DNA from: Naegleria gruberi
Taxonomy: Eukaryota
NCBI GenBank assembly: GCA_000004985.1
Contig: GG738845.1
Length of the DNA: 64,000 nt
Direction: 5' to 3' (one strand)
Shown here: one piece after another, positions 19,860 to 48,476 of the stretch
Numbering within the stretch: the first letter of the stretch is position 1
Layout of the letters: each line of letters begins with the position of its first letter
Notes under the pieces: generated by a model
Databases searched by the model: none
The model's input: the letters and a program-made list of their open reading frames with translations, nothing else
Told to the model about the DNA's origin: nothing
Program-made: the position numbers and the translations under genes

Positions 19860-21779
19860 TTAATCGTCGAAATTTGTCATTTCTTCTTCTTCATCCAAGT
19901 TTCGTTCTTCATCAAAGAATTGATCTATCATTGAACCAAGAGTTTTGGAATCATATGAAACGTACTTTGTAACATTCTTACTGAATTCGGTATTTTTGTA
20001 CTTTTCAACAAATTGTGTATATACAGGTATAACTTCTTCACGAGTTTTGTCTCTGAGCTCTTCCTTTAGTTCTATATCCCTGATGCAGTATGTTCTCTGA
20101 ATCATGTAAATAGCTTGGAATAGTTCGTTGAATTTGGAAAATCTCTTCTTAATCTCTTTCTTTGGATACTTTCCATTCTTATCAGGTTTTAACTTTTCTT
20201 GGTCTCTGAAATGTGAAAGAACATCATCCCAGGTAGCTCTTATGTATGAGTTGGTATCATCTTCCTTTAACTTCTTGTATTCTCTTTGTTTGGCTTCAGG
20301 AACATGCTTCTTGATTTTGGCATCTTGTAAATTCTTGAAAATATAATAGTGATTGTTCAGCACGAAAAGAGAAGCAAGACTCTTTTGTTTTGTGCTGTAT
20401 TGCTTTTTCTTTTCATCAATATTATGCTCAACAGCCTCTATCAATTGTAATAAATATTTGGCAAAGTAGGTCTTAATGTCACTATAACCAAACATTCTAT
20501 CAGTGTCGAATCTCTTCTGTTTGAGGATATTCTCAATGGATGGGTATTCAAGTAGTCTCTTCATGAAGGAGAATGCATTACTTGTAGCTTGATGGACAAC
20601 ACCATCCTCAAATGCTTTGATTTGATTGGTATGAATATTCTTATGAAAATCTGTCAGTAAATCATTAATATTATTCTTGAATGTTTCAGATAAGGTCTTG
20701 AATGCTTGCAAATGTTGAGTGTGAGCCAAAACTTCTTCGAAATTTTTCAAAAGCTTATTCTCAAAGTTTTCCAAAATATCTAGCATGACAAACACCTTTT
20801 CACTAGTTCTATTCTTATCTGCCAAATCTTCTGCTTGTTCTTTGAATATCTTTAAACTTGGAGAAACAACGTCACCATAAATTTGATTCTTTTGGTAGTC
20901 AACACTGACAACTTTCAGTGCAATCTTTCTTTCAGATTCCAACAGTTTCAAGTAAAAGTTCATGTAAAATATGAATGGATGAGAACCCTTCTTGTAGTAT
21001 TTCTGACTAAGAATCATATCATCATCCTTCTTTTTCAATTGTTTGATAGCATTCAAATTTGTTGGAACTTGCAATGCTTTATCCTTCTTTTCTGGTATAA
21101 GTACATTAAGAGCTGTTGTAATGCACTTGGATCTGTATTGAATGTATGTTCTTCTATAATCAATTTTACTGTAAAATTCCAATTTTTGAGCAATTGTAGA
21201 TAATTGATCAATCTTCTCCGAAGGAATTAAATCATAAGTTAAATCAAAATCATCCCTTTCCAAATCTTCCTTTCTATATCTGAAAGGGTCATTAGCTGGT
21301 GCTTTGGCACTAACAGTTTGAAGAATGTTAGAAAATTCGGCTTCCAATATTTGAACTGATTTTTGTCTCAACGAAAGACATTTGTCTTTTAATTTATCAG
21401 CACCTTTATAATTACTATGTTTTGAGAAGAAGGTAATAGTTTCATCATTTTGTTTGACAACTCCGAGAAAGCCTTCCAAATCATTAGCAATTCCTTTTTC
21501 AATCCTCTTTTCGAACATTTGTGGTCTATTATACTTTTCCAGAGTAAGATCCACACTTTTAATTGTAGAATCAATATTATCATGAGCCATCTTTAAAACA
21601 TCAATTCTATCATTCATGCTCGTCATTTCCTGCTCCAATTTTGAAAATCGATTTTCAAATCGATCTAGAATAGATACAATCTGATCCTTGATTTGAGAGC
21701 TTTTATTTAAACTCTCCTCCAACACTTTCAAATTCTTTTCAAAATGTTGAAAGGTTTTTGTAGGTATCGGGTTTTGCAT
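19860..21779 (-). CDS. EXO70: Exocyst complex component Exo70
   Basis: A 639-aa single ORF. The C-terminal signature 'KKRFSKFNELFQAIYMIQRTYCIRDIELKEELRDKTREEVIPVYTQFVEKY' matches the Exo70 'FN..F.E....Q..W.V.D..LREEL......PAY..F' block. The N-terminus is coiled-coil. Confidence 0.8.
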   Translation of the reverse strand: MQNPIPTKTFQHFEKNLKVLEESLNKSSQIKDQIVSILDRFENRFSKLEQEMTSMNDRIDVLKMAHDNIDSTIKSVDLTLEKYNRPQMFEKRIEKGIANDLEGFLGVVKQNDETITFFSKHSNYKGADKLKDKCLSLRQKSVQILEAEFSNILQTVSAKAPANDPFRYRKEDLERDDFDLTYDLIPSEKIDQLSTIAQKLEFYSKIDYRRTYIQYRSKCITTALNVLIPEKKDKALQVPTNLNAIKQLKKKDDDMILSQKYYKKGSHPFIFYMNFYLKLLESERKIALKVVSVDYQKNQIYGDVVSPSLKIFKEQAEDLADKNRTSEKVFVMLDILENFENKLLKNFEEVLAHTQHLQAFKTLSETFKNNINDLLTDFHKNIHTNQIKAFEDGVVHQATSNAFSFMKRLLEYPSIENILKQKRFDTDRMFGYSDIKTYFAKYLLQLIEAVEHNIDEKKKQYSTKQKSLASLFVLNNHYYIFKNLQDAKIKKHVPEAKQREYKKLKEDDTNSYIRATWDDVLSHFRDQEKLKPDKNGKYPKKEIKKRFSKFNELFQAIYMIQRTYCIRDIELKEELRDKTREEVIPVYTQFVEKYKNTEFSKNVTKYVSYDSKTLGSMIDQFFDEERNLDEEEEMTNFDD

Positions 21780-33659: not shown

Positions 33660-34413
33660 TTATTTTTTTAAACTAAATTCAAATGATAGTCCATTTCTTT
33701 CTCATGGAATTACTTGTGTAAAGTTCTTTTTTCCAATAAAGTCATTATCTTGTTAGCTTAATATTATAAAGTTGAAGTTTTTAATAATTTATTACAAAAC
33801 CAACAAAAACAACCATGAAAAGCTTGGTATTATTGATGATCTTTTTGCCTTTGGCATCAAGAATACTGTTTTGAAAAATAAATGGAGTTTAAAGGGTTTT
33901 GATTGTAAAAGTGAGATTTTAAGTGTATCAGAATAGTATGTGGATATTAATATACTCTCATATAAAGGAAAAAAGAGGATTTCATAAATCAAATTCCATT
34001 TAACAAAAGAAACCAAAAAAGTCATAAATGGGTTTAGCTTAAAATTACTTCCTTTATTGTTATCTAGATTAACATTAAGAGGAAACTTTTAGGAAAAATA
34101 TGACACAATAAATATACTTAATTCTCTCTTGGTTCAAGTTACATCATACAGTAAAAGGCCACTTAAATGAGGCGACGGGTGCCTTTGAACTTCCCACCAA
34201 ATCAAAAGCAACATCCAAAATCAAGAAATAAAACAAGTAGCTAATATATTCTGGCTTCATTCAATCTACAATCAGAATTCGTAGGATTAAGACATTTTCA
34301 GCCAAATCCCATAGGTGTAAGAAAGAGAGTTCGTAATATTTTGTTAAATCTAAAACTAAAAAAATGGCCGTATTTGAAAATATTAGACCATTACTTGATT
34401 TAAGAAATAAAGA

Positions 34414-34722
34414 ATGTTGAATTTATGTAACAGAATGCCAAAACCAGATTCAATATTTCTGGTTGCTATTAATCAAAAGGATGATAAAGGAAAACTAAGT
34501 ATAATTACTGACCTTACCTTTAACACACATAGACGAAAAACAATAATTGAGGCTCCCTCAAAAATGAACCTTTCCTTTCTTCTTTTTAATTGGAGAAGAC
34601 TTCTTCTTAGAACCAACCTTCAACATATTAATACTTTCACACTCTTTAAACTTACTTTTGTAACCTGTATCGGAACTGACACAAATGTTTTTCAAGAGGT
34701 TGTATTTCAATTAATTAATTAA
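34414..34722 (+). repeat. Diverged inverted duplicate, arm 1 (partner at 36297..36596)
   Basis: ORF 34414 translates '...IFLVAINQKDDKGKLSIITDLTFN...'. ORF 36297(-) translates '...YYLIKTKKADNKGKPSIIKDLSMQ...'. The underlying DNA is ~70% identical, in inverted orientation. Confidence 0.4.
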
Positions 34723-35394
34723 CTTTTCAAAAGGATGTTCGACATCTAAATAATTCGATTGTGGAAGTATACAAACATGATGATCCTAATGTTTTCAAAT
34801 TATTGGAAGAAAATACGAAAAGAGAGAACAAGTTTTTCTCTATAATTAAAATTGACTAAGATAAATTCAAGTTTGTTCCAAATAATAAATATTCAATTCC
34901 CAAAAATCAAAACAAGATGAAAAGAAATATTAAATAAATCAAATAATATTAATTTCACTACACTATTGATTTGCTTAACCCAACTAAAAAATGACCAGTA
35001 AGCAATCCTCTAATCCGTTGATGAAAGAATACAAGCTCTTTGTAAATGCCAAGGCTAAGAATTTGCTTATAGAAGGTATCTTGTATTCACTGGATCCATC
35101 AAGAGTTGTCAAAGGTTACTCCTTTATTGTACAACATGTAACAAAAGTGCTGAAGATGATAAAGTTTATACCAAAAACTCCTTTTGCAGAAAGATGGATC
35201 CCATTACAGGCAAAGTGTATCTAAAAGAACACCATTTATAGAAAAGCAATTGAAAACAAAGGACGAATTGGGGTTATCTGATACTCTTTTAGGTAAACTA
35301 AGGGTTGTTATGTTTATATTTTAAATTTACTTACGTTTTGAACACAATATCAATCCGTATTCCCAAGTATGTAAAAACAAAAAAGAAAACGGAT

Positions 35395-35556
35395 TCCAAT
35401 AGAAATTAAAATACAATCTTTTTCTTTTTGTTATTGTTAAAGGTTCAGGCAAAATATTTGTACTGGTTTTACAAATTAACAACAAATCACATTTAAAAGA
35501 ATTAATTTGATTTTCTTGATGAGATAAAATGTGATAGGTTTGATGTGTCATTTTTT
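35395..35556 (-). repeat. Interspersed repeat family copy 1 (foldback-like element end, minus orientation)
   Basis: Contains 'aacaaatcacatttaaaagaattaatttgattttcttgatgagataaaatgtgataggtttgatgtgtcattttt'. This is the reverse complement of the consensus head 'aaaaatgacacgtcaaatctatcacattttatctcatcaagaaaatcaaattaattcttttaaatgtgatttgtt'. Confidence 0.7.
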
Positions 35557-35875
35557 AAATCAAATATGAGAATGGATGGAAAATGTTTTTATTTACAAGA
35601 GGGGATGAAAAATCAGATGGGTAGTTGGATCCATCCACAAAATCAAAATCCTGTGTGATGTTGTAAATTCTGTTCGGCGGAGGGGTTATGTGGGATTCTT
35701 GTAATTCTAAAAGGTCAACAAATTGTTGGTTAATAACATAATAAATGATAAACAAAAGAATTCCTTGTTTAAGTTTACTCCTTCGCCACCTTAATAAATT
35801 GTTGTAAGCTTTTACAATAAAATTTATGTTAACAACAAACTTTTAAAAGAAAAAGATGAAAGAATTTATTTAAAT

Positions 35876-36035
35876 CAAAAAAATGACACGTCAAATCTAT
35901 CACATTTTATTTCATCAAGAAAATCAAATTAATTCTTTTAAATGTGATTTGTTAATAATTATTAAAACCACTACAAATATTTTAATAGCAAAAAGAATAC
36001 ATTGTATCATACATAGGATGTTTATTAAGACTTGT
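35876..36035 (+). repeat. Interspersed repeat family copy 2 (plus orientation); head-to-head with copy 1 across a ~320-bp spacer
   Basis: Shares the same ~80-bp head and the downstream 'tatcatacataggatgtttattaagac' box at 36003-36031. The small track ORFs 'MT(R/H)Q(I/T)YHILSHQENQINSFKCDLL..' are translations of this repeat. Confidence 0.7.
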
Positions 36036-36296
36036 CAGACAATATTGTCTTCATCATTTTCTATTAATTCTTATAATTCTTCCATAATTAAATCTTCATC
36101 TCTATTCTCTTTTCAGCTTTAATTAAAGGTTTCGTTGGTAGTAGGTTTGTTATTAAAATACTGTGTGGTGTTGTGGATTTTGTGTGGCAGAGGGGGATTT
36201 GGATGACAGATTTTCCATCCCCTCAATCTGAATCTATTGGAATTCCGTTTTGAATTTAATGTGGTGAATCATGTTGGAAACATCGAATTCTTGTTA

Positions 36297-36596
36297 TCAA
36301 GTTGTGAAAACGAGAGAGGTGATTATCAAGAGAAATGTTGGTATTACCTTGTCAATCAACATCGCGTCCACATGAAAGACGCAACCACTATCAAGAGCAA
36401 GTAAGGATTGTAGTGGTGATTGCATCGATAAATCTTTAATAATACTTGGCTTTCCTTTGTTATCAGCTTTCTTTGTTTTTATCAAATAATAGCTGTTGGG
36501 GTCTGGTTTTCTATTAACAAAATTAACATTTTCAATTTCTTGAATAGAATTAACTTTGTTGATATCTTTGGCAAAATCATTCAAATATCGTGCCAT
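36297..36596 (-). repeat. Diverged inverted duplicate, arm 2 (partner at 34414..34722)
   Basis: See arm 1. The two arms bracket the copy1/copy2 foldback cluster. Confidence 0.4.
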
Positions 36597-37337: not shown

Positions 37338-37665
37338 AAAAAAATGTCATGTCAAATCTATCACATTTTGTCTCATCAAGAAAATCAAATTAATTCTTTT
37401 AAATGTGATTTGTTGTTAATTTTTAAAATCACTACAAATATTTTGCCCAAAACGTCAACAATAACAAAAAGAAAGTATTTTAATTTTCTCAAAAGAAAAA
37501 ATATAAGTTTAGGTTTTTTTATAAGAATTGCTATTATGAGAGTACTAAATAAGTATTATATTACTTCTTCGAATTTGGAGAAGAATTGGTATTGTAGTTG
37601 AAAGAAAGATCTATTATATCATACACATGCATGAGATGTTTATTAAGACCAAAAGTAACAGATTT
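37338..37665 (+). repeat. Interspersed repeat family copy 3 (solo, plus orientation)
   Basis: Head 'aaaaaatgtcatgtcaaatctatcacattttgtctcatcaagaaaatcaaattaattcttttaaatgtgatttgtt' at 37338-37415, plus the 'tatcatacacatgcatgagatgtttattaagacc' box at ~37615-37650. Confidence 0.65.
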
Positions 37666-38399
37666 GGTAAATAGAAAAATCCAAGGCTACTTTCAAAATC
37701 TAAACAAATACACTAAAAAGATCAAATGGAGAATGGATATATAATATTTTGCATCCTCTGTGTCAGTTTGGGGAGAAATTATGAGCTGGTTGAAGATAAT
37801 TTTCAAGGCAGGTACATACAATTCTTTAGCCACTTGATGAAAGGGACAAGCAAATCTTTTAATGATGATCCCATTTTTGCAAATTTTTAAAATTGTTTTT
37901 GAGAAATTTGTTAGTTGACACAAGATGTTCTTATCGAGGTTTGTGTAGTGGGTTCTAATATTATTAATACTAGTATTGAGTTAACAAGCTTAATCAAGTC
38001 ATGGTCAATTTTTCAACATTACAACAACAACAAATGGTTGAAAAATTACTTATTAACCAAGAGGTTAATAAGTACATTGCTAAAAGATTCAATAATATCA
38101 CTTCTACTAACCCAAAGATATTGTCAGAATATGAGAATATCAAGAGGGTGGTTAGATCAGCCCTTATTTTGGCTAGTAAGTTGCTAGAAGAAGGAACTTG
38201 TTGTTTATTGTGAGCGAAATATAATAGCTCTTCAACACGCTGATAATCCTGTAGTGACTGTCCAAATAGTAAGGCCCAAATCAATAAACAAGATGCATCT
38301 TTCTACTCAGACGAATCTTTTTTTCGTGAACATCTCTACATATCGTAGACATGTTAAGAGATGGAGTGAAGGTCCTTCCAATCCATCTCAAGATTTAAT

Positions 38400-40330
38400 T
38401 CTATTCAAAGGCCAAGAACTTGGCTTGTGAAAGAACTCTTCAAAGAATTGGAGCAATCGAAGAATGTACAGATCTGGTGATTATTTCAAGATACAGATTG
38501 GTTCCAAAGAGGGATTCATATCGACTGATAATTAGAGATGGATTGCCGATCATTAGGTATAATGATAGAGAAGAAAAAGAGTTATCTAAAACCAATGAAA
38601 ACGTTTCAATTATTAGGAATAATTGTAGATTTAGAAAAGAAGATATTGTCAATGAATTCGTCAACAATAATCAAGATAAAACAAAGAATTGGAATGGTTT
38701 TATCTCAATTTCATCAAGGAGAAAGAATTTTCTTTAGAGATTTATATCGTATCACTGGTATTGTTATTGCTTATCTAGATTGTTTTCAACCAGCAAGAGT
38801 AATGCTCAATCCAATTTATACATTTGCAGCAGAGAAAGTTTTCAAACACGGATGGGAAGGAAGTTGTTACCTCTCCGATCGAGTAGTTTACTGTCTCCAA
38901 TGGATTTCAGCAAATCTGAATTTTTGGAATGGAAAGGTTTTTCAATTCCCAAGTCTGGTGAATTATTTCTGGACAGACGCTTCAAAGATTGGATGGGGAG
39001 CTCATTTCAAGGAGAAGAATTTAAAAATCAATGGTCATTGGTCGGAAGAAGAAGCAAAACAATCAATCAATGTTCTAGAGTTAAGAGCTGTTTGGAAAGC
39101 TCTTCAACAATGGAGAAAAATTCTGAATGGTCAAAATTTGATAATTTACTTGGATTCTATGGTAGCTCTACACACCATAAAAAAGGGTGGTTCAAAATCC
39201 AAGACAATCTCTCGAATAGTTCAATCGATATGGAGAAAAATTTTCGAGGAGAATATTCAACTCCTTTCATTGGAATGGTTGTCTTCTCAGGAGAATTCAA
39301 TTGCAGACGCACTGAGCAGAACTCCAATAGAGACGGATCCAACAGATTGGGAAATCTTAACAAGTTCCTTCAACCGAGTACAGCAGCAATTGAATGTATC
39401 AATCGATTTGCCAGCCCGTACAATTTCAAGGTAAATCCCATTCTGTACAAGACACAGAACCAGCAGGGAAATTCCAGCAGATTCATTCTCCCGTCTTTGG
39501 ATAGAACCAGTAATCAATTGGTGTTGCGTCCCATTCAATCTAATAGGGAGAGTAATCCAACATTGCATAGAATCCAAAGCTCAAATGGTTCTAGTTCATC
39601 CAGTGTGGAAATCCCAATATTGGTGGAAAACTATAGAAACTCTGAGAGTGAAATCTGTAGAAGTTTATGGACGAGATTTCAAGTCTACAAAAAGCGGGAA
39701 GGTGGAGCCTTCGAAAAAGTCTTGGAATTTAGAAGCCAGTCTTTTGGACGCTCGCTCCAAGACTTGACAGATATTGCTTTAATGTTAATGCCTCATCATA
39801 TCAAAGATTCGACTGCGGCAACGTATGATTCATATTGGAGAAGGTTGATTGAATTTGCAATTCGTAACTTTTTCAATCCTCCACCTTCTGAAGATTTGGT
39901 TTTTTTATTTATTACTGATCTATTCATCACTTGGCCAGTGGTGGTAATTGTAAACAAGCAAAGTTTGCAATTAAGAATAGATGTAAATTATTTGGTGTAG
40001 ATGATCCCACTACATCTCAACGTATTCAATTACTCATTTCAGGGATGTGCAATGTATCATACGTTTTCTCTCCACGAATTAGAAATCCATGGAGTATTGT
40101 TTATATTCGAAAGTGGATTCAGGTTGGAAGGAATTTTGTTCCTGAAAAATCATTTATTATGTACACAACTTTAATTAAGACAAGTTGCTATTTGGCTTAA
40201 TATAGAGGGGAAGTTTTCTTCCCATTCATTAAGAATTGGTGGTGCGACCGATGCTGCTTATGCAAAGATTGGTAAAGAGGCAATCAAGGCGATTGGTGAT
40301 TGGTCTTCTGATGCAATTGATATCTTCGAT
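38400..40330 (+). mobile_element. Degenerate DIRS/Ngaro-type tyrosine-recombinase retrotransposon remnant (RT thumb - RNase H - 'LVHPVW' domain - YR C-terminus), frameshifted
   Basis: Track ORF 38538..39434 has the RT C-terminal 'FQLLGIIVDLEKKILSMNSSTIIKIKQRI' (the FLGY..K motif), then RNase H 'FWTDASKIGWGAHF...NVLELRAVWKALQQW...DSMVALHTIKKGGSKS...ENSIADALSR'. A frame-shifted continuation carries 'IDL(P)ARTIS..', and ORF 39585 carries 'MVLVHPVWKSQYWWKTI' (the DIRS 'ILIAPxWPxQxW' signature). At ~40200-40320 comes 'KFSSHSLRIGGATDAAYAKIGKEAIKAIGDWSSDAIDIF', a tyrosine-recombinase H-x-x-R...Y box. Several frameshifts and stops mean it is non-functional. Confidence 0.6.
38538..39434 (+). pseudogene. 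RT(thumb)/RNase H ORF of the DIRS-like element
   Basis: See the parent element. The RNase H catalytic-residue context (TDAS...ELRAV...D..SIADALSR) is typical of YR-retroelement and LTR-type RNase H. Confidence 0.55.
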
Positions 40331-40395
40331 CTGAATTTTCTATTGACATAAACGTATCTAAAGATTTGGGTTTTTAGTTTTTTGCTGGTAGGACT

Positions 40396-40446
40396 CAGTA
40401 TTTCAGAAACGACACCTTATTTTGTTGTTGATAAACCTATAAACAG
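40396..40446 (+). repeat. Dispersed ~45-bp direct repeat R1, copy a (possible DIRS-like terminal/ICR fragment)
   Basis: 'cagtatttcagaaacgacaccttattttgttgttgataaacctataaacag' matches 'tagtatttcaaaaacgacacctttatgataaacctataacag' at 43590-43631. Confidence 0.5.
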
Positions 40447-40523
40447 GGTCAAAAGAAGCATTATTAAGACAACAAACACTTGTTTTTGAGCAATTAGAAG
40501 GAAACGAAGAAATCACAGTAGCA

Positions 40524-40730
40524 ATGGATGGTTCATTTGAGAATAAGAGAGGTGGTATTGGAATTGTGACGAAAACTCAACAAATATCAATGAAGGCATT
40601 CGCTGCTGCATCGTCATTTGATTGTGAAATCCAAGCCATCTACATGGCCCTAAAAATGACAGCCAAGTTCCAAAGAATTAACATATTATCAGACTCACAA
40701 GCTAGTATCAAGATTATTCAAAGGAGATAA
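40524..40730 (+). pseudogene. Isolated RNase H-like fragment (retroelement-derived)
   Basis: 'DGSFENKRGGIGIVTKTQQISMKAFAAASSFDCEIQAIYMALKMTAKFQRINILSDSQASIKII' fits the RNase H DGS...G.G...AE(L/I)QAI..AL...I.SDSQ pattern. It lies just 3' of the YR fragment and is unlinked in frame. Confidence 0.45.
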
Positions 40731-40978: not shown

Positions 40979-42793
40979 CTATTGTAAAATAAAATAATCC
41001 GGAAGTGGATCTAAATTTCTGTTTAAAAATCCAAAATCTATTAATTCTTTGTCAAGACTAAAAAATTGTGGTGCATGGGTGGAAATATTAATTTCAAACA
41101 CATCTATTGTAAATTTAACGCGCTTAGAATCTAATTTCTCAAAATCACAGTTTGTAACATCTTGGAAGTCGATATTATTGCGGCGGCATATGTGTATTTC
41201 TTTTAAAGTTGGGCTATTAACTAAATATCGGGCTGCGTTTAATGATAAATTATTCTGCAAATATAAAATTTTCAAATTTGGCAATCGAGTCCTTCTAGAA
41301 AATATTTCCATACATTCTGAATCATGTGTTAGTATTCTTAATCTTTCTAAATTAATCAAATTTGAAAAAGCAATTATATGAATATTTGATGAATTAATGT
41401 TTAAAAAAAAGCCACATTCAAAGTAAATTAAATTTAGTAAATCACCATTACATAAGTAATATAATGCAGAATTGTTAATAGGAGAACAAATTGCTAAATG
41501 TGTTAATTGGCTCATTTGCGCAATAATTTTAATATTTTCTGTTGATAAACATGAATCAAAACCATTTCCTAAACATAATCCTCTTAATGAATTTAGCTCC
41601 AACATACTGCTCATGTCAATGTTTAATGTTGATGCAAATAAATGTAGATATTTAATATTTTTAAAATTGTTCACAAAATTATTAAAATTATAATTATTTC
41701 TAAAATATTTAGTGTTTGTATGCAAATATAAACATTCTAATGCTGGCATTGAAATATTTTCTAAATTGCACGTACCATGCCATTTTGCAGCACTAAAATA
41801 ATTATTAATAACCAAATGTTTCAATAAAGGTAAGCATGTAATATTGTGTATGCTTGATTCATCAGGTATTTGTAGTGATGTTAAATTAGAAAAATTAATA
41901 GTAGGCGGTAATGGAAAGTAAAAAAAATTAGGTCCAATATTTAGTAATTCGAATTGATGAGAATACTTAATAATTTCATTGTAAATTTGGTTTAAATGTT
42001 TAAAAACAGTAGTACCAATATAGATTGAGAATTTTGTTAACAATGGAAATTTTGAAAAATCAAAAGTAGAATCAATAGTTTCCATACTGTTACCACATAT
42101 CGATAATTCTTTTAAATTAGAATAAGGGATATCAATATTGAACAAGTAAGAAAATGCTTTTTTAAAATCCCAACTAACGTGAAACATAAATGTATCTAAT
42201 TTAGTATGAACGTAATTACACAATAATTTGTATGATTTCTTTGAATTAATTCCACTAAAACGCATGCTTGAAAGTGCCAATTGTTTTAATTTTGGTAGTT
42301 TAAACATATTTTCTATGTCATTAGAGCTTAATGTGAAGTTTTTAATATGTAATTTTGTGATATTTGAATGTTGTAGTATATTATCAGAAATAGAACTAAA
42401 TTTAATTCTATAAACACCACTATTTTCCACTCCACTTATTACTAATTGTACTAATTTTTTAGATGTTAACATTATTTCGAGAGTGTCTTTGAAATCAGTT
42501 ATATTATGTAATGTTATTCTTGCAAATAATTGCAAAAAATTGTGTTTTTCCCCCAAGCCGCAACGAATTTGTTTTGTTTTCTTATCAAAATATCTATTCA
42601 TAAAATCCCTTTTGTATGGTAATGAAAAAGCTGCTTGTCTCCATTCCGAACACACATGAGTGGCGCATATTAAACTGTTTGTGTTTAAATAGGAAAATAT
42701 TTCTAATAATAAATCGTATGGAATGTTGCAAGGAACAGTATCGTTTCTTTCCTTTTTTTTTTTACGTAAAGGAAAGAGGAAAGCGTGTAGCAT
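40979..42793 (-). CDS. F-box / leucine-rich-repeat protein
   Basis: A 604-aa single ORF with an ATG at 42791-42793 (reverse complement). The N-terminal F-box is 'IPYDLLLEIFSYLNTNSLICATHVCSEWRQAA'. The remainder is an irregular LRR ('LKELSICGN', 'LTSLQIPD', 'LKHLVINN', 'LRGLCLGN', 'LTHLAICS', 'LERLRILT', 'LKILYLQNN'). Confidence 0.7.
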   Translation of the reverse strand: MLHAFLFPLRKKKKERNDTVPCNIPYDLLLEIFSYLNTNSLICATHVCSEWRQAAFSLPYKRDFMNRYFDKKTKQIRCGLGEKHNFLQLFARITLHNITDFKDTLEIMLTSKKLVQLVISGVENSGVYRIKFSSISDNILQHSNITKLHIKNFTLSSNDIENMFKLPKLKQLALSSMRFSGINSKKSYKLLCNYVHTKLDTFMFHVSWDFKKAFSYLFNIDIPYSNLKELSICGNSMETIDSTFDFSKFPLLTKFSIYIGTTVFKHLNQIYNEIIKYSHQFELLNIGPNFFYFPLPPTINFSNLTSLQIPDESSIHNITCLPLLKHLVINNYFSAAKWHGTCNLENISMPALECLYLHTNTKYFRNNYNFNNFVNNFKNIKYLHLFASTLNIDMSSMLELNSLRGLCLGNGFDSCLSTENIKIIAQMSQLTHLAICSPINNSALYYLCNGDLLNLIYFECGFFLNINSSNIHIIAFSNLINLERLRILTHDSECMEIFSRRTRLPNLKILYLQNNLSLNAARYLVNSPTLKEIHICRRNNIDFQDVTNCDFEKLDSKRVKFTIDVFEINISTHAPQFFSLDKELIDFGFLNRNLDPLPDYFILQ

Positions 42794-42825
42794 TTTTTTT
42801 GTTGTTATGTTTTATTGATACAGCT

Positions 42826-42966
42826 CATCAGATCCTCTCAAAAATAAACAATCACAATCTAGAATGTCAACAATTAAAGAGTGGAATGTGAAACGATTTC
42901 TAATAATTTAAAAATCCACTCCTTCTAAAAGCATCACAAAAAATCATGACAGTCTTTTTGTTTGGA
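42826..42966 (+). repeat. Dispersed ~140-bp direct repeat R2, copy a
   Basis: 'catcagatcctctcaaaaataaacaatcacaatctagaatgtcaacaattaaagagtggaatgtgaaacgatttctaataatttaaaaatccactccttctaaaagcatcacaaaaaatcatgacagtctttttgtttgg' is ~90% identical to 46315-46453. Confidence 0.7.
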
Positions 42967-43589
42967 TCTAACACATTAAAAGATTTACTTGCCACTTTCA
43001 CACCACAAGTGGCTAAAGAATTCCCACCACCCCACCCTAACACAGAATAATTTCAATAGAAATTTCAGATCTAGTAAGTCAATAATTTTTTAATAATTTA
43101 TTATTTTATTGGATTTCATTTGATTATATCCAATTTGGTGACAGATAATTTGGTCAAATGACATTTTCATTTGGATAGCCAATTATCTAAAGCAATAGCT
43201 TTTGTAGTATTGCTTGGTGGTGGATATCAAGTGGGTATCACTATCAGGAACAAGACAGGATCATTTGTTGACCTGGTTCCTTAATCAAATATGTGAAAAT
43301 TCTAACAATTTTTTATATGATTTGTGTGTTTATTTAATTTTTTAAATTTAAAGCACTGCTATGCAGAGAATTAGTTAGCAAGTTTTCAGATATTTCAATA
43401 TTTCAGATTTGTTTTTATGGTTTTTTAAGGTTTTTTGAATTTATTAGATGGTTTAATGGGCGCATAGTTGCAACTATTAGAGGTATTAGAGTTTAAAAAT
43501 TATACAAAAGTTGATTAATGATATCCTCAATCATTATTTATTATTATTATTCTTGCGAATTAATTTACACGCGTGTAATAGAATAAACT

Positions 43590-43631
43590 TAGTATTTCAA
43601 AAACGACACCTTTATGATAAACCTATAACAG
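43590..43631 (+). repeat. Direct repeat R1, copy b
   Basis: See R1 copy a. The two copies bracket the F-box/LRR gene (3.2 kb apart). Confidence 0.5.
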
Positions 43632-43919
43632 TATGCTCTAAAAAAAACCACAATGAAAAAGAATAAACTGACTTTTAATTTCAGGAGATCAGAATGGCAT
43701 TAAGGAGGGAATTGTATTTTACAATACTATTACAACAGAAACCAAAAGTTTTACAAATCAATCTGACATTACAATATTTGGAAAAAAGAGGATTTCATGA
43801 ATCAATTTTCAAAATCATTACCATCAAAAGAACATAAGTTTCTGATTGTACAATTTTAAAATTAATCCCTTTAAAAAAAGTTTGAAATGGAGAATTAAAA
43901 TAAACACAAAAGAAAGCAA

Positions 43920-44076
43920 ATTCAAATAGAAATTAAAATACTTTCTCTTTCTTTTTGCAACCATTGAGGGCAAAATTTTTAGAGGTTTTAATAATTAATA
44001 ACAAATCACATTTAAAAGAATTAATTTGATTTTCTTGATGAGATAAAATGTGATAGATTTGATGTTTCATTTTTTT
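43920..44076 (-). repeat. Interspersed repeat family copy 4 (minus orientation)
   Basis: 'acaaatcacatttaaaagaattaatttgattttcttgatgagataaaatgtgatagatttgatgtttcatttttt', plus the upstream 'aatagaaattaaaatac...' segment shared with copy 1. Confidence 0.7.
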
Positions 44077-44461
44077 TACAAACTCTATTACCAATAAAAC
44101 CAAATATCTAAAAAAGATAATTTCTTAAAAGAGTTGTTGGTTTGATATTTTGTTTTTTGTAGAAAAACCAATCTCGTAAATATGAATGTTCATTAAGTCA
44201 AAATCAGAAACCTAAATCCTTTAAGACATGTCTATGAAGATATCTATTAATTGAATCAGAAGACCAATGGTTAAATTTACCTTTATCTTTGCATAAAATT
44301 ACATCTTGAGTTAATAAATTATCATTGTAATATTATGGTCAATTTTCACCAATCCATAGCCTTGGTAGATTGGTTTGGCCATAACTATTATATTAATAAC
44401 TTTCACTAAATACACTTTATTAAGGTGGAGAAAGAGTGACAAATTTTAAATATTTTGCTTT

Positions 44462-44860
44462 AAAAAAATGACACGTCAAATCCATCACATTTTATCTCAT
44501 CAAGAAAATCAAATTAATTCTTTTAAATGTGATTTGTTATTAATTATTAAACCCACTATTTTAATAACAAAAAGAAAAAGAAAATATTTTAATTTCAAAA
44601 TGAATCCGTTTTCTTTGCAATTTATTTTAGCATCCTCCATTGAGAGAATGGAAATATTACTTCTTCGAATTTGCAGAAGATATTGGTATAATATTAAAAC
44701 CAGACTGGAAAGGGTTTTTAATGGCGGGTTTTAAACATCTGCAATAATATACAAATGTTTAACTATATTTTCATTGAGAACCTTTTCACCTTTACGGCAA
44801 ACCAATACGACAGGTAAATCATATATTGTATCATACATGAGATGTTTATTAAGACCATGT
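44462..44860 (+). repeat. Interspersed repeat family copy 5 (plus orientation); head-to-head with copy 4 across a ~390-bp spacer
   Basis: Head 'aaaaaatgacacgtcaaatccatcacattttatctcatcaagaaaatcaaattaattcttttaaatgtgatttgtt' at 44462-44540, and 'tatcatacatgagatgtttattaagacc' at 44829-44856. Confidence 0.7.
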
Positions 44861-46314
44861 AAAATTATTGCCTCTTATTGCCAAAATCGACAACAATAAA
44901 CAAACGAAAAGAGATTTCATTTTTTAAGTTGTTCTCTTGATTTGGCTCTTAATTACACTTTCCACATAATTGGTAGTATTTATAAAAGACATACTACTTG
45001 TTCGGCCTGTATTTGTTAATAAATGTCAATGCTTATTCCATTGCTCATGGAAGTATTTGCAAAAAGCACCTTCTTTGTCTGTGTTTTCCAAAGCCTCTAA
45101 AGTAAATGGAAACTGAAAACCCTTTTTCTTGAAACTCGTTTAATAATGAGTCACAAATATCCACACCTATATTGTAAATAGCTTTCTTGAAGATTGATTC
45201 TGTGATATCAACGATATCTTTAACACCTTCCAGTTTACCTCTGTGGTGATGTGTTTCCAATAGCAACCACCTGACCTTTACATAAATAAAAATAAACATT
45301 TTAAACCAAGTCGAAGAATACCAAGTTATAAATTGTTGAAATGGAATAATCTATTACAGATTTTGTATTTTGTGTTTGGTTATTACTTTGTACCTCTTTT
45401 GTTATATATTTTCACCTTCTTCCTGCGTTGTATGTTTTTTTGTATTACCTGTTTAGGTTAGGTTAATTCTAAAGCTCTATTCATATTCAGATTTTTCTTT
45501 TGGTTTGACTTATCCTTCAAATTGTGTTAGAGTTGTTTTATTTTTGCTACAAATAGAGTTAGTTTTGTAGCAAAGGTTAGGCCAAAAAGAAAGCTCTTGA
45601 TAAGGAAAGCTCTGTTGTTGAAGTTATACTGAATGTCCAAATGTGGAAAAATATGTGTTAAATTAGTGGGATGGATTTTGGATATTAATATACTCTGTAA
45701 ATCTCACTCATTTTGAATCCGAGTTGAATTAAAGTTGATATATTCTAAATCAATAACACTTTCCCAAAGGAAAAAACATAGTAATAAAATATTGAATTTT
45801 ATTTTATTTCATTATTTGCTCAATTTTATTCTATTTCAAAAAAAAGAATCCAAATACAGTGTTTTTCGTGTTTTGCATGTTTTTTCATGTTTTTTCAAAA
45901 ACGACTCTCACTGTCCCAACTTTTTGGATATTGGTGAATAAATAATCGGCAAAAAGCCAAAAGAAGAAAAAAGTTTATTTTTTAATTTTCTTATAAATAT
46001 TCGTAAAGTGATTTAAATGTATTCTTTGTTGATAATTACTCAAAACACAACACATTTCCAAATAATATTATCCAATCCAAGATTATGATTAACGAGGCAT
46101 CATTAAAAATCATTAACAAGAAATTAATGGCTCTACGTTAAGACCTAAGTTAAGCTGACGTTAACAGAAACAATTTATGAAAAGAAAAAAAAATTCAACA
46201 TAGTGAATGAACCGCCACCATTAATGGTGAATAGACTAATGTTACAGGAAATTAAGGAACCTCATCTTAATTCAATTTGATATTGTAACTTTCCTTTTCT
46301 TAGACAGCGTCTTC

Positions 46315-46453
46315 ATCAGATCCTCTCAAAATTAAACTATCACTTTCTGGAATGTCAACAATTAAAGAGTGGAATGTGAAACGATTTCTAATAATTTAAA
46401 ATTCCACTCTTTCTAACAGCATCACAAAAAATCATGGCAGTTTTTTTGTTTGA
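46315..46453 (+). repeat. Direct repeat R2, copy b
   Basis: See R2 copy a. It lies 3' of the kinase gene. Confidence 0.7.
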
Positions 46454-48002: not shown

Positions 48003-48476
48003 NNNNNNNNNNNNNNNNNNNNNNNNNNNNNNNNNNNNNNNNNNNNNNNNNNNNNNNNNNNNNNNNNNNNNNNNNNNNNNNNNNNNNNNNNNNNNNNNNN
48101 NNNNNNNNNNNNNNNNNNNNNNNNNNNNNNNNNNNNNNNNNNNNNNNNNNNNNNNNNNNNNNNNNNNNNNNNNNNNNNNNNNNNNNNNNNNNNNNNNNNN
48201 NNNNNNNNNNNNNNNNNNNNNNNNNNNNNNNNNNNNNNNNNNNNNNNNNNNNNNNNNNNNNNNNNNNNNNNNNNNNNNNNNNNNNNNNNNNNNNNNNNNN
48301 NNNNNNNNNNNNNNNNNNNNNNNNNNNNNNNNNNNNNNNNNNNNNNNNNNNNNNNNNNNNNNNNNNNNNNNNNNNNNNNNNNNNNNNNNNNNNNNNNNNN
48401 NNNNNNNNNNNNNNNNNNNNNNNNNNNNNNNNNNNNNNNNNNNNNNNNNNNNNNNNNNNNNNNNNNNNNNNNNNNN
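48003..48476. other. Assembly gap (474 N)
   Basis: A run of n characters. Track ORF 47950..48867 with a poly-X translation is an artefact spanning it. Confidence 0.99.

Follow-up and report, generated by a model that had tools for sequence, protein, structure and literature searches.

Paired and solitary copies of a short non-coding repeat in Naegleria gruberi, possible relics of a non-autonomous mobile element

The locus and its repeat copies

The DNA analysed here (the window) is a 64,000-nt stretch of contig GG738845.1 of Naegleria gruberi (assembly GCA_000004985.1), a species whose repeats account for about 5% of the genome and for the most part defy classification (PMC9928731; PMC12344493). 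The window is 27–37% G+C when read in 2-kb windows, and contains intron-split genes and no tRNA genes. The Exo70 ORF at 19860–21779 (minus strand) is 100% identical to the NCBI entry 'exocyst complex component 7 [Naegleria gruberi]'; its orthologues in N. fowleri, N. lovaniensis and Willaertia are 75–80% identical, and its gene neighbourhood in N. fowleri differs from that of the window. The ORF at 40979–42793 (minus strand) encodes a 604-aa protein with an F-box and leucine-rich repeats, for which no relative was found at E ≤ 1e-5 in a database of 5.8 billion proteins; an exact look-up did not return it either, even with the genome present in NCBI, and the annotated gene model of this protein may differ from the plain ORF.

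The five known copies of the repeat all lie inside one 9.5-kb stretch of the window, and are housed in two gene-poor intergenic islands that also carry other transposon debris (Table 1). A first-pass annotation, made from the sequence alone, had reported five occurrences, arranged as two facing pairs and a solo copy, and this layout was recovered in full: the 32-nt head of the repeat is found at five sites with at most three mismatches (none in 100 shuffled sequences), and the copies form two head-to-head inverted pairs with their heads inward, namely pair A (c1/c2, 35366–36031) and pair B (c4/c5, 43886–44857), together with the solo copy c3 (37338–37651). The end coordinates proposed in that annotation are correct to about 30 nt.

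Table 1. Repeat copies, their parts and neighbouring features (positions in the window)
Feature	Position	Strand	Description
Island A	33.7–40.9 kb		c1–c3 and two retroelement fragments; between M20 peptidase gene and F-box/LRR gene
Small ORF left of pair A	34414–34722	+	mirror-image relative of ORF 36297–36596
Copy 1 (c1)	35366–35556	−	short form (S), head plus ~190 nt; left arm of pair A
42-nt invariant block, c1	35481–35522	−	
Head site, c1	35524–35555	−	match with ≤3 mismatches
Loop of pair A	35557–35876		320 nt
X1	35642–35685		within loop A; direct repeat with X2
Palindrome in loop A	35793–35870		weak, local
Copy 2 (c2)	35877–36031	+	long form (L), 154 nt, internal deletion; right arm of pair A
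Head site, c2	35879–35910	+	match with ≤3 mismatches
42-nt invariant block, c2	35912–35953	+	
X2	36152–36195	+	44 nt, 80% identical to X1
Small ORF right of pair A	36297–36596	−	mirror-image relative of ORF 34414–34722
Copy 3 (c3)	37338–37651	+	solo long form (L), 314 nt, both ends sharp
Head site, c3	37340–37371	+	match with ≤3 mismatches
42-nt invariant block, c3	37373–37414	+	
DIRS-like retroelement remnant	~38250–40450	+	RT N-terminus, RNase H, recombinase-like C-terminus
Isolated RNase H fragment	40524–40730	+	68 aa; Pfam RNase_H E = 6e-8
Island B	42965–46294		pair B; between F-box gene start and kinase gene stop
Copy 4 (c4)	43886–44077	−	short form (S); left arm of pair B
42-nt invariant block, c4	44000–44041	−	
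Head site, c4	44043–44074	−	match with ≤3 mismatches
Loop of pair B	44078–44461		384 nt
Palindrome in loop B	44316–44402		
Copy 5 (c5)	44462–44857	+	long form (L), 396 nt, longest; right arm of pair B
Head site, c5	44464–44495	+	match with ≤3 mismatches
42-nt invariant block, c5	44497–44538	+	

Anatomy of the repeat

All five copies start at the same point, with a run of six to eight A residues followed by TGACACG / TGACACGTCAAATC. This head boundary is sharply defined and confirms the consistent termini expected by the earlier annotation, and upstream of it the copies are dissimilar (p > 0.09 in nine of ten pairwise comparisons; p = 0.01 for c3/c4). The three plus-strand copies (c2, c3 and c5) additionally have a common tail end, …GATGTTTATTAAGAC, beyond which their flanks are at most marginally alike (p = 0.05–0.75); the tail terminus in these copies reads …ATTGTATCATACATGAGATGTTTATTAAGAC. 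They represent a long form (L) with two sharp ends and a length of 154–396 nt that varies by internal deletions; in c2, for example, head and core are followed directly by the tail module. The two minus-strand copies represent a short form (S), in which similarity is lost about 175–190 nt from the head, at points within about 10 nt of each other; the homology of c1 to the other copies stops at about 35366–35375. As the minus-strand copies stop about 190 nt in and the plus-strand copies reach the tail, both pairs read S(−), loop, L(+). No terminal inverted repeat was found inside single copies, and tandem subrepeats are absent from the arms of the pairs.

Across a 99-nt core, any two copies are 89–95% identical and the copies do not group by pair or by position; divergence is roughly equal among all five. 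A 42-nt block, TCATCAAGAAAATCAAATTAATTCTTTTAAATGTGATTTGTT, is identical in all five, though the columns neighbouring it vary; an invariant run of this length has p = 9e-5 by permutation.

This conservation is at the nucleotide level; variable columns fall 7, 7 and 2 times on codon positions 1, 2 and 3. We considered a protein-coding first exon, as all copies carry the A run and an ATG and four keep ORFs of 74–88 codons, and rejected it on the substitution pattern and on the frameshifts that indels cause among the copies (c4 is frameshifted). The same two observations agree with the earlier statement that the small ORFs are mere translations of the repeat. An exact look-up of these ORFs ('MTRQIYHILSHQENQ…') in a protein collection returned nothing, and the N. 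gruberi Exo70 protein was likewise absent there. A candidate RNA gene was also rejected: Rfam 15 gave no match at gathering thresholds, with chance-level matches only at E ≤ 5, and folding of the core does not exceed chance. Metagenome and viral contigs did not contain a 30-nt segment taken from the invariant block. As for the internal inverted motif that had been noted in the head, it does exist, as a 9-bp stem with a bulge, but the head folds no better than shuffled sequence in any of the copies (z between −1.1 and +0.3), so that the motif is not more than chance would provide.

The inverted pairs

The arms of pair A (35451–35556 and 35878–35983) are 106 nt long, 92% complementary and 321 nt apart; those of pair B (43980–44076 and 44462–44558) are 97 nt long, 95% complementary and 385 nt apart, and extend to 43886–44076 and 44462–44641 at 82%. 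Single-strand folding yields long hairpins with z = −24 for pair A and z = −14 for pair B relative to shuffles, bearing out the hairpin potential that had been attributed to facing copies. The two loops are essentially unrelated, apart from one 50–60-nt patch of borderline significance that they share in opposite orientation; a search of the window for inverted copies of the loops found none, only the direct repeat X1/X2. The outer ends of each pair are unmatched, the left arm stopping at about 190 nt and the right arm continuing to a different sharp end: both left arms lack the tail module, and the two ends of a pair are therefore no inverted copies of one another.

Target-site duplications, to which the earlier annotation had looked for confirmation, did not materialise, as none above chance was found for single copies, for the pairs, or for the head-outward pairings c2..c4 and c3..c4; with a boundary slack of ±10 nt, the best direct repeats flanking the pairs measured 4–5 nt, the same as for random intervals. 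Nor does the window hold a full-length copy with a transposase, also sought there. The 'INTTNYVESVIKSQIKR' motif beside c5, which we took as a lead to a Mutator-type transposase, yielded nothing in Pfam at E ≤ 10 and no homologue in a large protein database, and this candidate was dropped.

Taken as a true foldback or MITE element, the moving unit would be the whole pair (S arm, loop and L arm), c3 would be a half-element, and a transposase would bind the inverted arms while the loop was free to vary, as in Drosophila FB elements. The common layout of the two pairs and their near-equal outer limits (S at about 190 nt; the same L tail) agree with such a unit, as do the strong folding and the much better conservation of arms than of loops, and FB-type transposons and long-arm MITEs likewise combine conserved inverted arms around a variable, unrelated loop with hairpin potential, absence of coding capacity and internal deletions. 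We nevertheless judge it unlikely. The arms are unequal (about 190 nt as against 154–396 nt) and without tandem subrepeats, the outer termini do not match, no target-site duplication flanks either pair, the best-conserved part of each arm is its inner end instead of the supposed terminus, and just two instances are at hand. Moreover, loops that share only one inverted patch between arms of 89–95% identity are unlike those of a MITE or foldback element copied as one unit. The foldback or MITE assignment of the first-pass annotation thus survives in part: a dispersed non-coding repeat with a consistent sharp end and foldable inverted pairs does lie amid transposon debris, but target-site duplications, matched outer ends, related loops, a transposase and a significant head hairpin are missing.

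A bolder version, to which we give little credence, would make the S(−)/loop/L(+) pair a functional unit, either a foldback-type transposon family with arms of unequal length and loops that can be exchanged, the first described in the Heterolobosea, or a hairpin locus derived from a transposon, its invariant 42-nt core being retained for its transcription into double-stranded RNA that supplies the amoeba's silencing machinery.

Flanks of the copies

The sequences that adjoin the five copies cannot be aligned outside the repeat, save for a pair of small ORFs and a piece termed Q. The two ORFs, placed as mirror images on either side of pair A, are 43% identical over 37 aa (E = 7e-7; …KPD…KGK.SII.DL…), so that a weak inverted symmetry reaches about 1 kb beyond the arms of this pair. 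Neither ORF has a Pfam family or a real homologue, and an exhaustive HMMER search with the one at 36297–36596 gave only repeat-inflated artefacts, animal PAN-domain and Ig-domain proteins; they may be the remains of an older repeated gene or transposon protein. The Q piece (32–95 nt) lies collinearly in the left flanks of both pairs (33967–34056 and 43780–43873) at 67–90% identity. The direct repeats X1 and X2 enclose c2 alone, along with some 310 nt of flanking sequence (their score of 43 exceeds the highest value of 35 seen in shuffles), and a G-rich hairpin, GAGGGGGAT…ATCCCCTC, lies beside X2 at about 36188–36228. No long direct repeats flanking the pairs were found, and several short patches (the GAGGGGATGGAAAAT motif, an 18-nt match between 33941 and 45679, and 'GAGAATGGA' pieces) are at or near chance.

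Several of these observations could point to segmental duplication on the spot, inverted as well as direct, in which an old palindrome and its partial copy had their cores kept alike by gene conversion: the mirror symmetry around pair A, the collinear Q piece, the long direct duplications nearby (X1/X2 and a 155-nt repeat, D2, around island B) and the tight clustering of the copies. We think such a history improbable, since five copies would not share one exact end point if conversion tracts had set it, the mirror symmetry of pair A is displaced by about 480 nt, and no alignment at all is possible for the loops and most flanks.

The contrast between the core and its surroundings (89–95% nucleotide identity, against 43% amino-acid identity for the flanking ORFs and 67–90% for Q), the invariance of the 42-nt block between variable columns and the confinement of all copies to a single short stretch would also fit a non-mobile host element (for instance a cis-regulatory cassette, a gene for an unstructured non-coding RNA or a hairpin-RNA source) that selection preserved after local duplication as the sequence around it decayed. 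The chances of this appear slim: no Rfam family matches, the stability of the core fold is not beyond chance, internal deletions have left copies anywhere between 154 and 396 nt long, and the copies lie in transposon debris with no consistent position relative to intact genes.

The DIRS-like remnant

The larger of the neighbouring retroelement fragments has lost the core of its reverse transcriptase by deletion; its RNase H is recognised by Pfam at E = 2.5e-6 to 1e-5, with an overlapping 406-codon frame, and a recombinase-like stretch, …HSLRIGGATDAA…, continues in split frames to about 40450 (Pfam Phage_integrase, below the cut-off at E = 0.007). A few degenerate DIRS1-like copies have been reported from N. 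gruberi (PMC3266345), and this fragment is probably among them; the DIRS1-like loci reported in the species number roughly 7. The isolated RNase H fragment downstream is probably debris of a second, unrelated retroelement.

Copy c3 lies about 0.6 kb upstream of the DIRS-like remnant on the same strand, which is where a left terminal repeat would be expected, and this raises the question of whether the repeats are the terminal inverted repeats of a DIRS-type (tyrosine-recombinase) retrotransposon. In that case the left repeat would be represented by L and the right one, which differs from it, by S, and the S(−)/L(+) junctions would stem from tandem elements or from integration of a circular intermediate. 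The inverted terminal repeats of DIRS-1 itself are non-identical, and the element is able to insert into copies of itself (PMC7192593; PMC5006619), and the present repeats resemble DIRS1-type termini in being non-identical and inverted, a few hundred nucleotides long and clustered with copies of the same family; the report of degenerate DIRS1-like copies in this species points the same way. The reading is nonetheless rather improbable: no repeat copy follows the recombinase region 3' of the remnant, four of the five copies (c1, c2, c4 and c5) adjoin no DIRS-like coding sequence, the window contains no internal complementary region (neither an extra head nor an inverted loop copy), the loops, which would be the outer extensions of the element, are unrelated, and the recombinase assignment is weak.

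Origin of the repeat

We tentatively favour, at somewhat short of an even chance, the view that the repeats are independent copies, now decayed, of an unclassified mobile element of N. gruberi that was short, non-coding and non-autonomous. A transposon origin is suggested by the common sharp ends, the deletion derivatives, the unrelated flanks, the roughly equal divergence, the conserved block near one end and the setting amid other transposon debris, which makes a mobile-element origin the best reading. Defective transposon derivatives typically differ by internal deletions, and the unrelated loops and flanks are fitted best by independent copies. Against independent insertions stands the fact that both pairs read S(−), a gap of 320–384 nt and L(+), with S ends that coincide within about 10 nt; the clustering of the five copies within 9.5 kb could be due to local duplication.

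Under the favoured origin as a non-autonomous element, the complete unit would be L, of about 400 nt, running from the fixed head (A6–8 plus TGACACGTCAAATC…) to the fixed tail (…GATGTTTATTAAGAC); internal deletions would have shortened it to as little as 154 nt, and S would retain the first ~190 nt only. The first ~100 nt, including the 42-nt block, is the part that stayed intact, presumably as a cis-acting site for an enzyme encoded elsewhere. Copies would then have built up in the two intergenic islands with their other transposon debris, and the foldback-like structures would be S and L copies lying head-to-head around unrelated DNA, formed when a copy inserted beside a resident one or through local rearrangement, as opposed to the copying of one foldback unit. 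That the repeat was mobile, what its conserved block did and by which route the pairs arose are points that we infer.

The repeat was also compared with known classes of elements other than those discussed above. LTR elements have TG…CA ends, a target-site duplication of 4–6 bp and an adjacent primer-binding site or polypurine tract; c3 and c5 do begin with TG after the A run and end with CA, and no target-site duplication above chance was found and, as judged by reading the sequence, no tRNA-type primer-binding site follows. Helitrons have 5'-TC … CTRR-3' ends with a GC-rich 3' hairpin and insert between A and T; the absence of terminal inverted repeats and of target-site duplications is a likeness to them, and neither TC/CTRR ends nor A|T flanks were seen on reading the sequence in both orientations. 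SINEs and other non-LTR retroposons have a 3' poly(A) or simple-repeat tail and variable 5' truncation; because the A run of the common end of the present repeat lies on its 5' side and reads as a 3' T run on the other strand, neither strand has a 3' A tail. A close resemblance is also seen to the unclassified RepeatModeler-type interspersed repeats of N. gruberi (PMC12344493), which are likewise short, AT-rich and non-coding, of low copy number as far as visible, and located in gene-poor islands with other transposon fragments.

Implications for annotation and other features of the region

The finding is an ordinary one, and chiefly useful for annotation. As the repeats of N. gruberi are poorly classified, a curated consensus (head, 42-nt core, tail, and the S and L forms) would improve repeat masking, and it would keep the small 'MTRQIYHILSHQ…' ORFs out of gene calls. 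If inverted pairs recur genome-wide, they would offer a tractable system in which to see how pairs of inverted transposons come about in a protist with a compact genome, and would also be candidates for producing hairpin RNA within heterochromatic, methylated repeat islands.

An assembly gap (a run of N at 48003–48476), some 3 kb away from island B, interrupts an ORF, and repeats there may therefore have hindered assembly. Island B itself (3.3 kb) is bracketed by the 155-nt direct repeat D2, whose two copies (42810–42964 and 46295–46452) are 93% identical and each hold a 49-nt hairpin; the F-box gene starts about 30 nt downstream of one copy, and the other is found about 95 nt past the stop of the kinase gene. 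The island looks like a 3.3-kb insertion into an intergenic spacer of about 280 nt with an unusually long target duplication; circular DNA integrating by recombination, or a replication-based event, could lie behind this arrangement.
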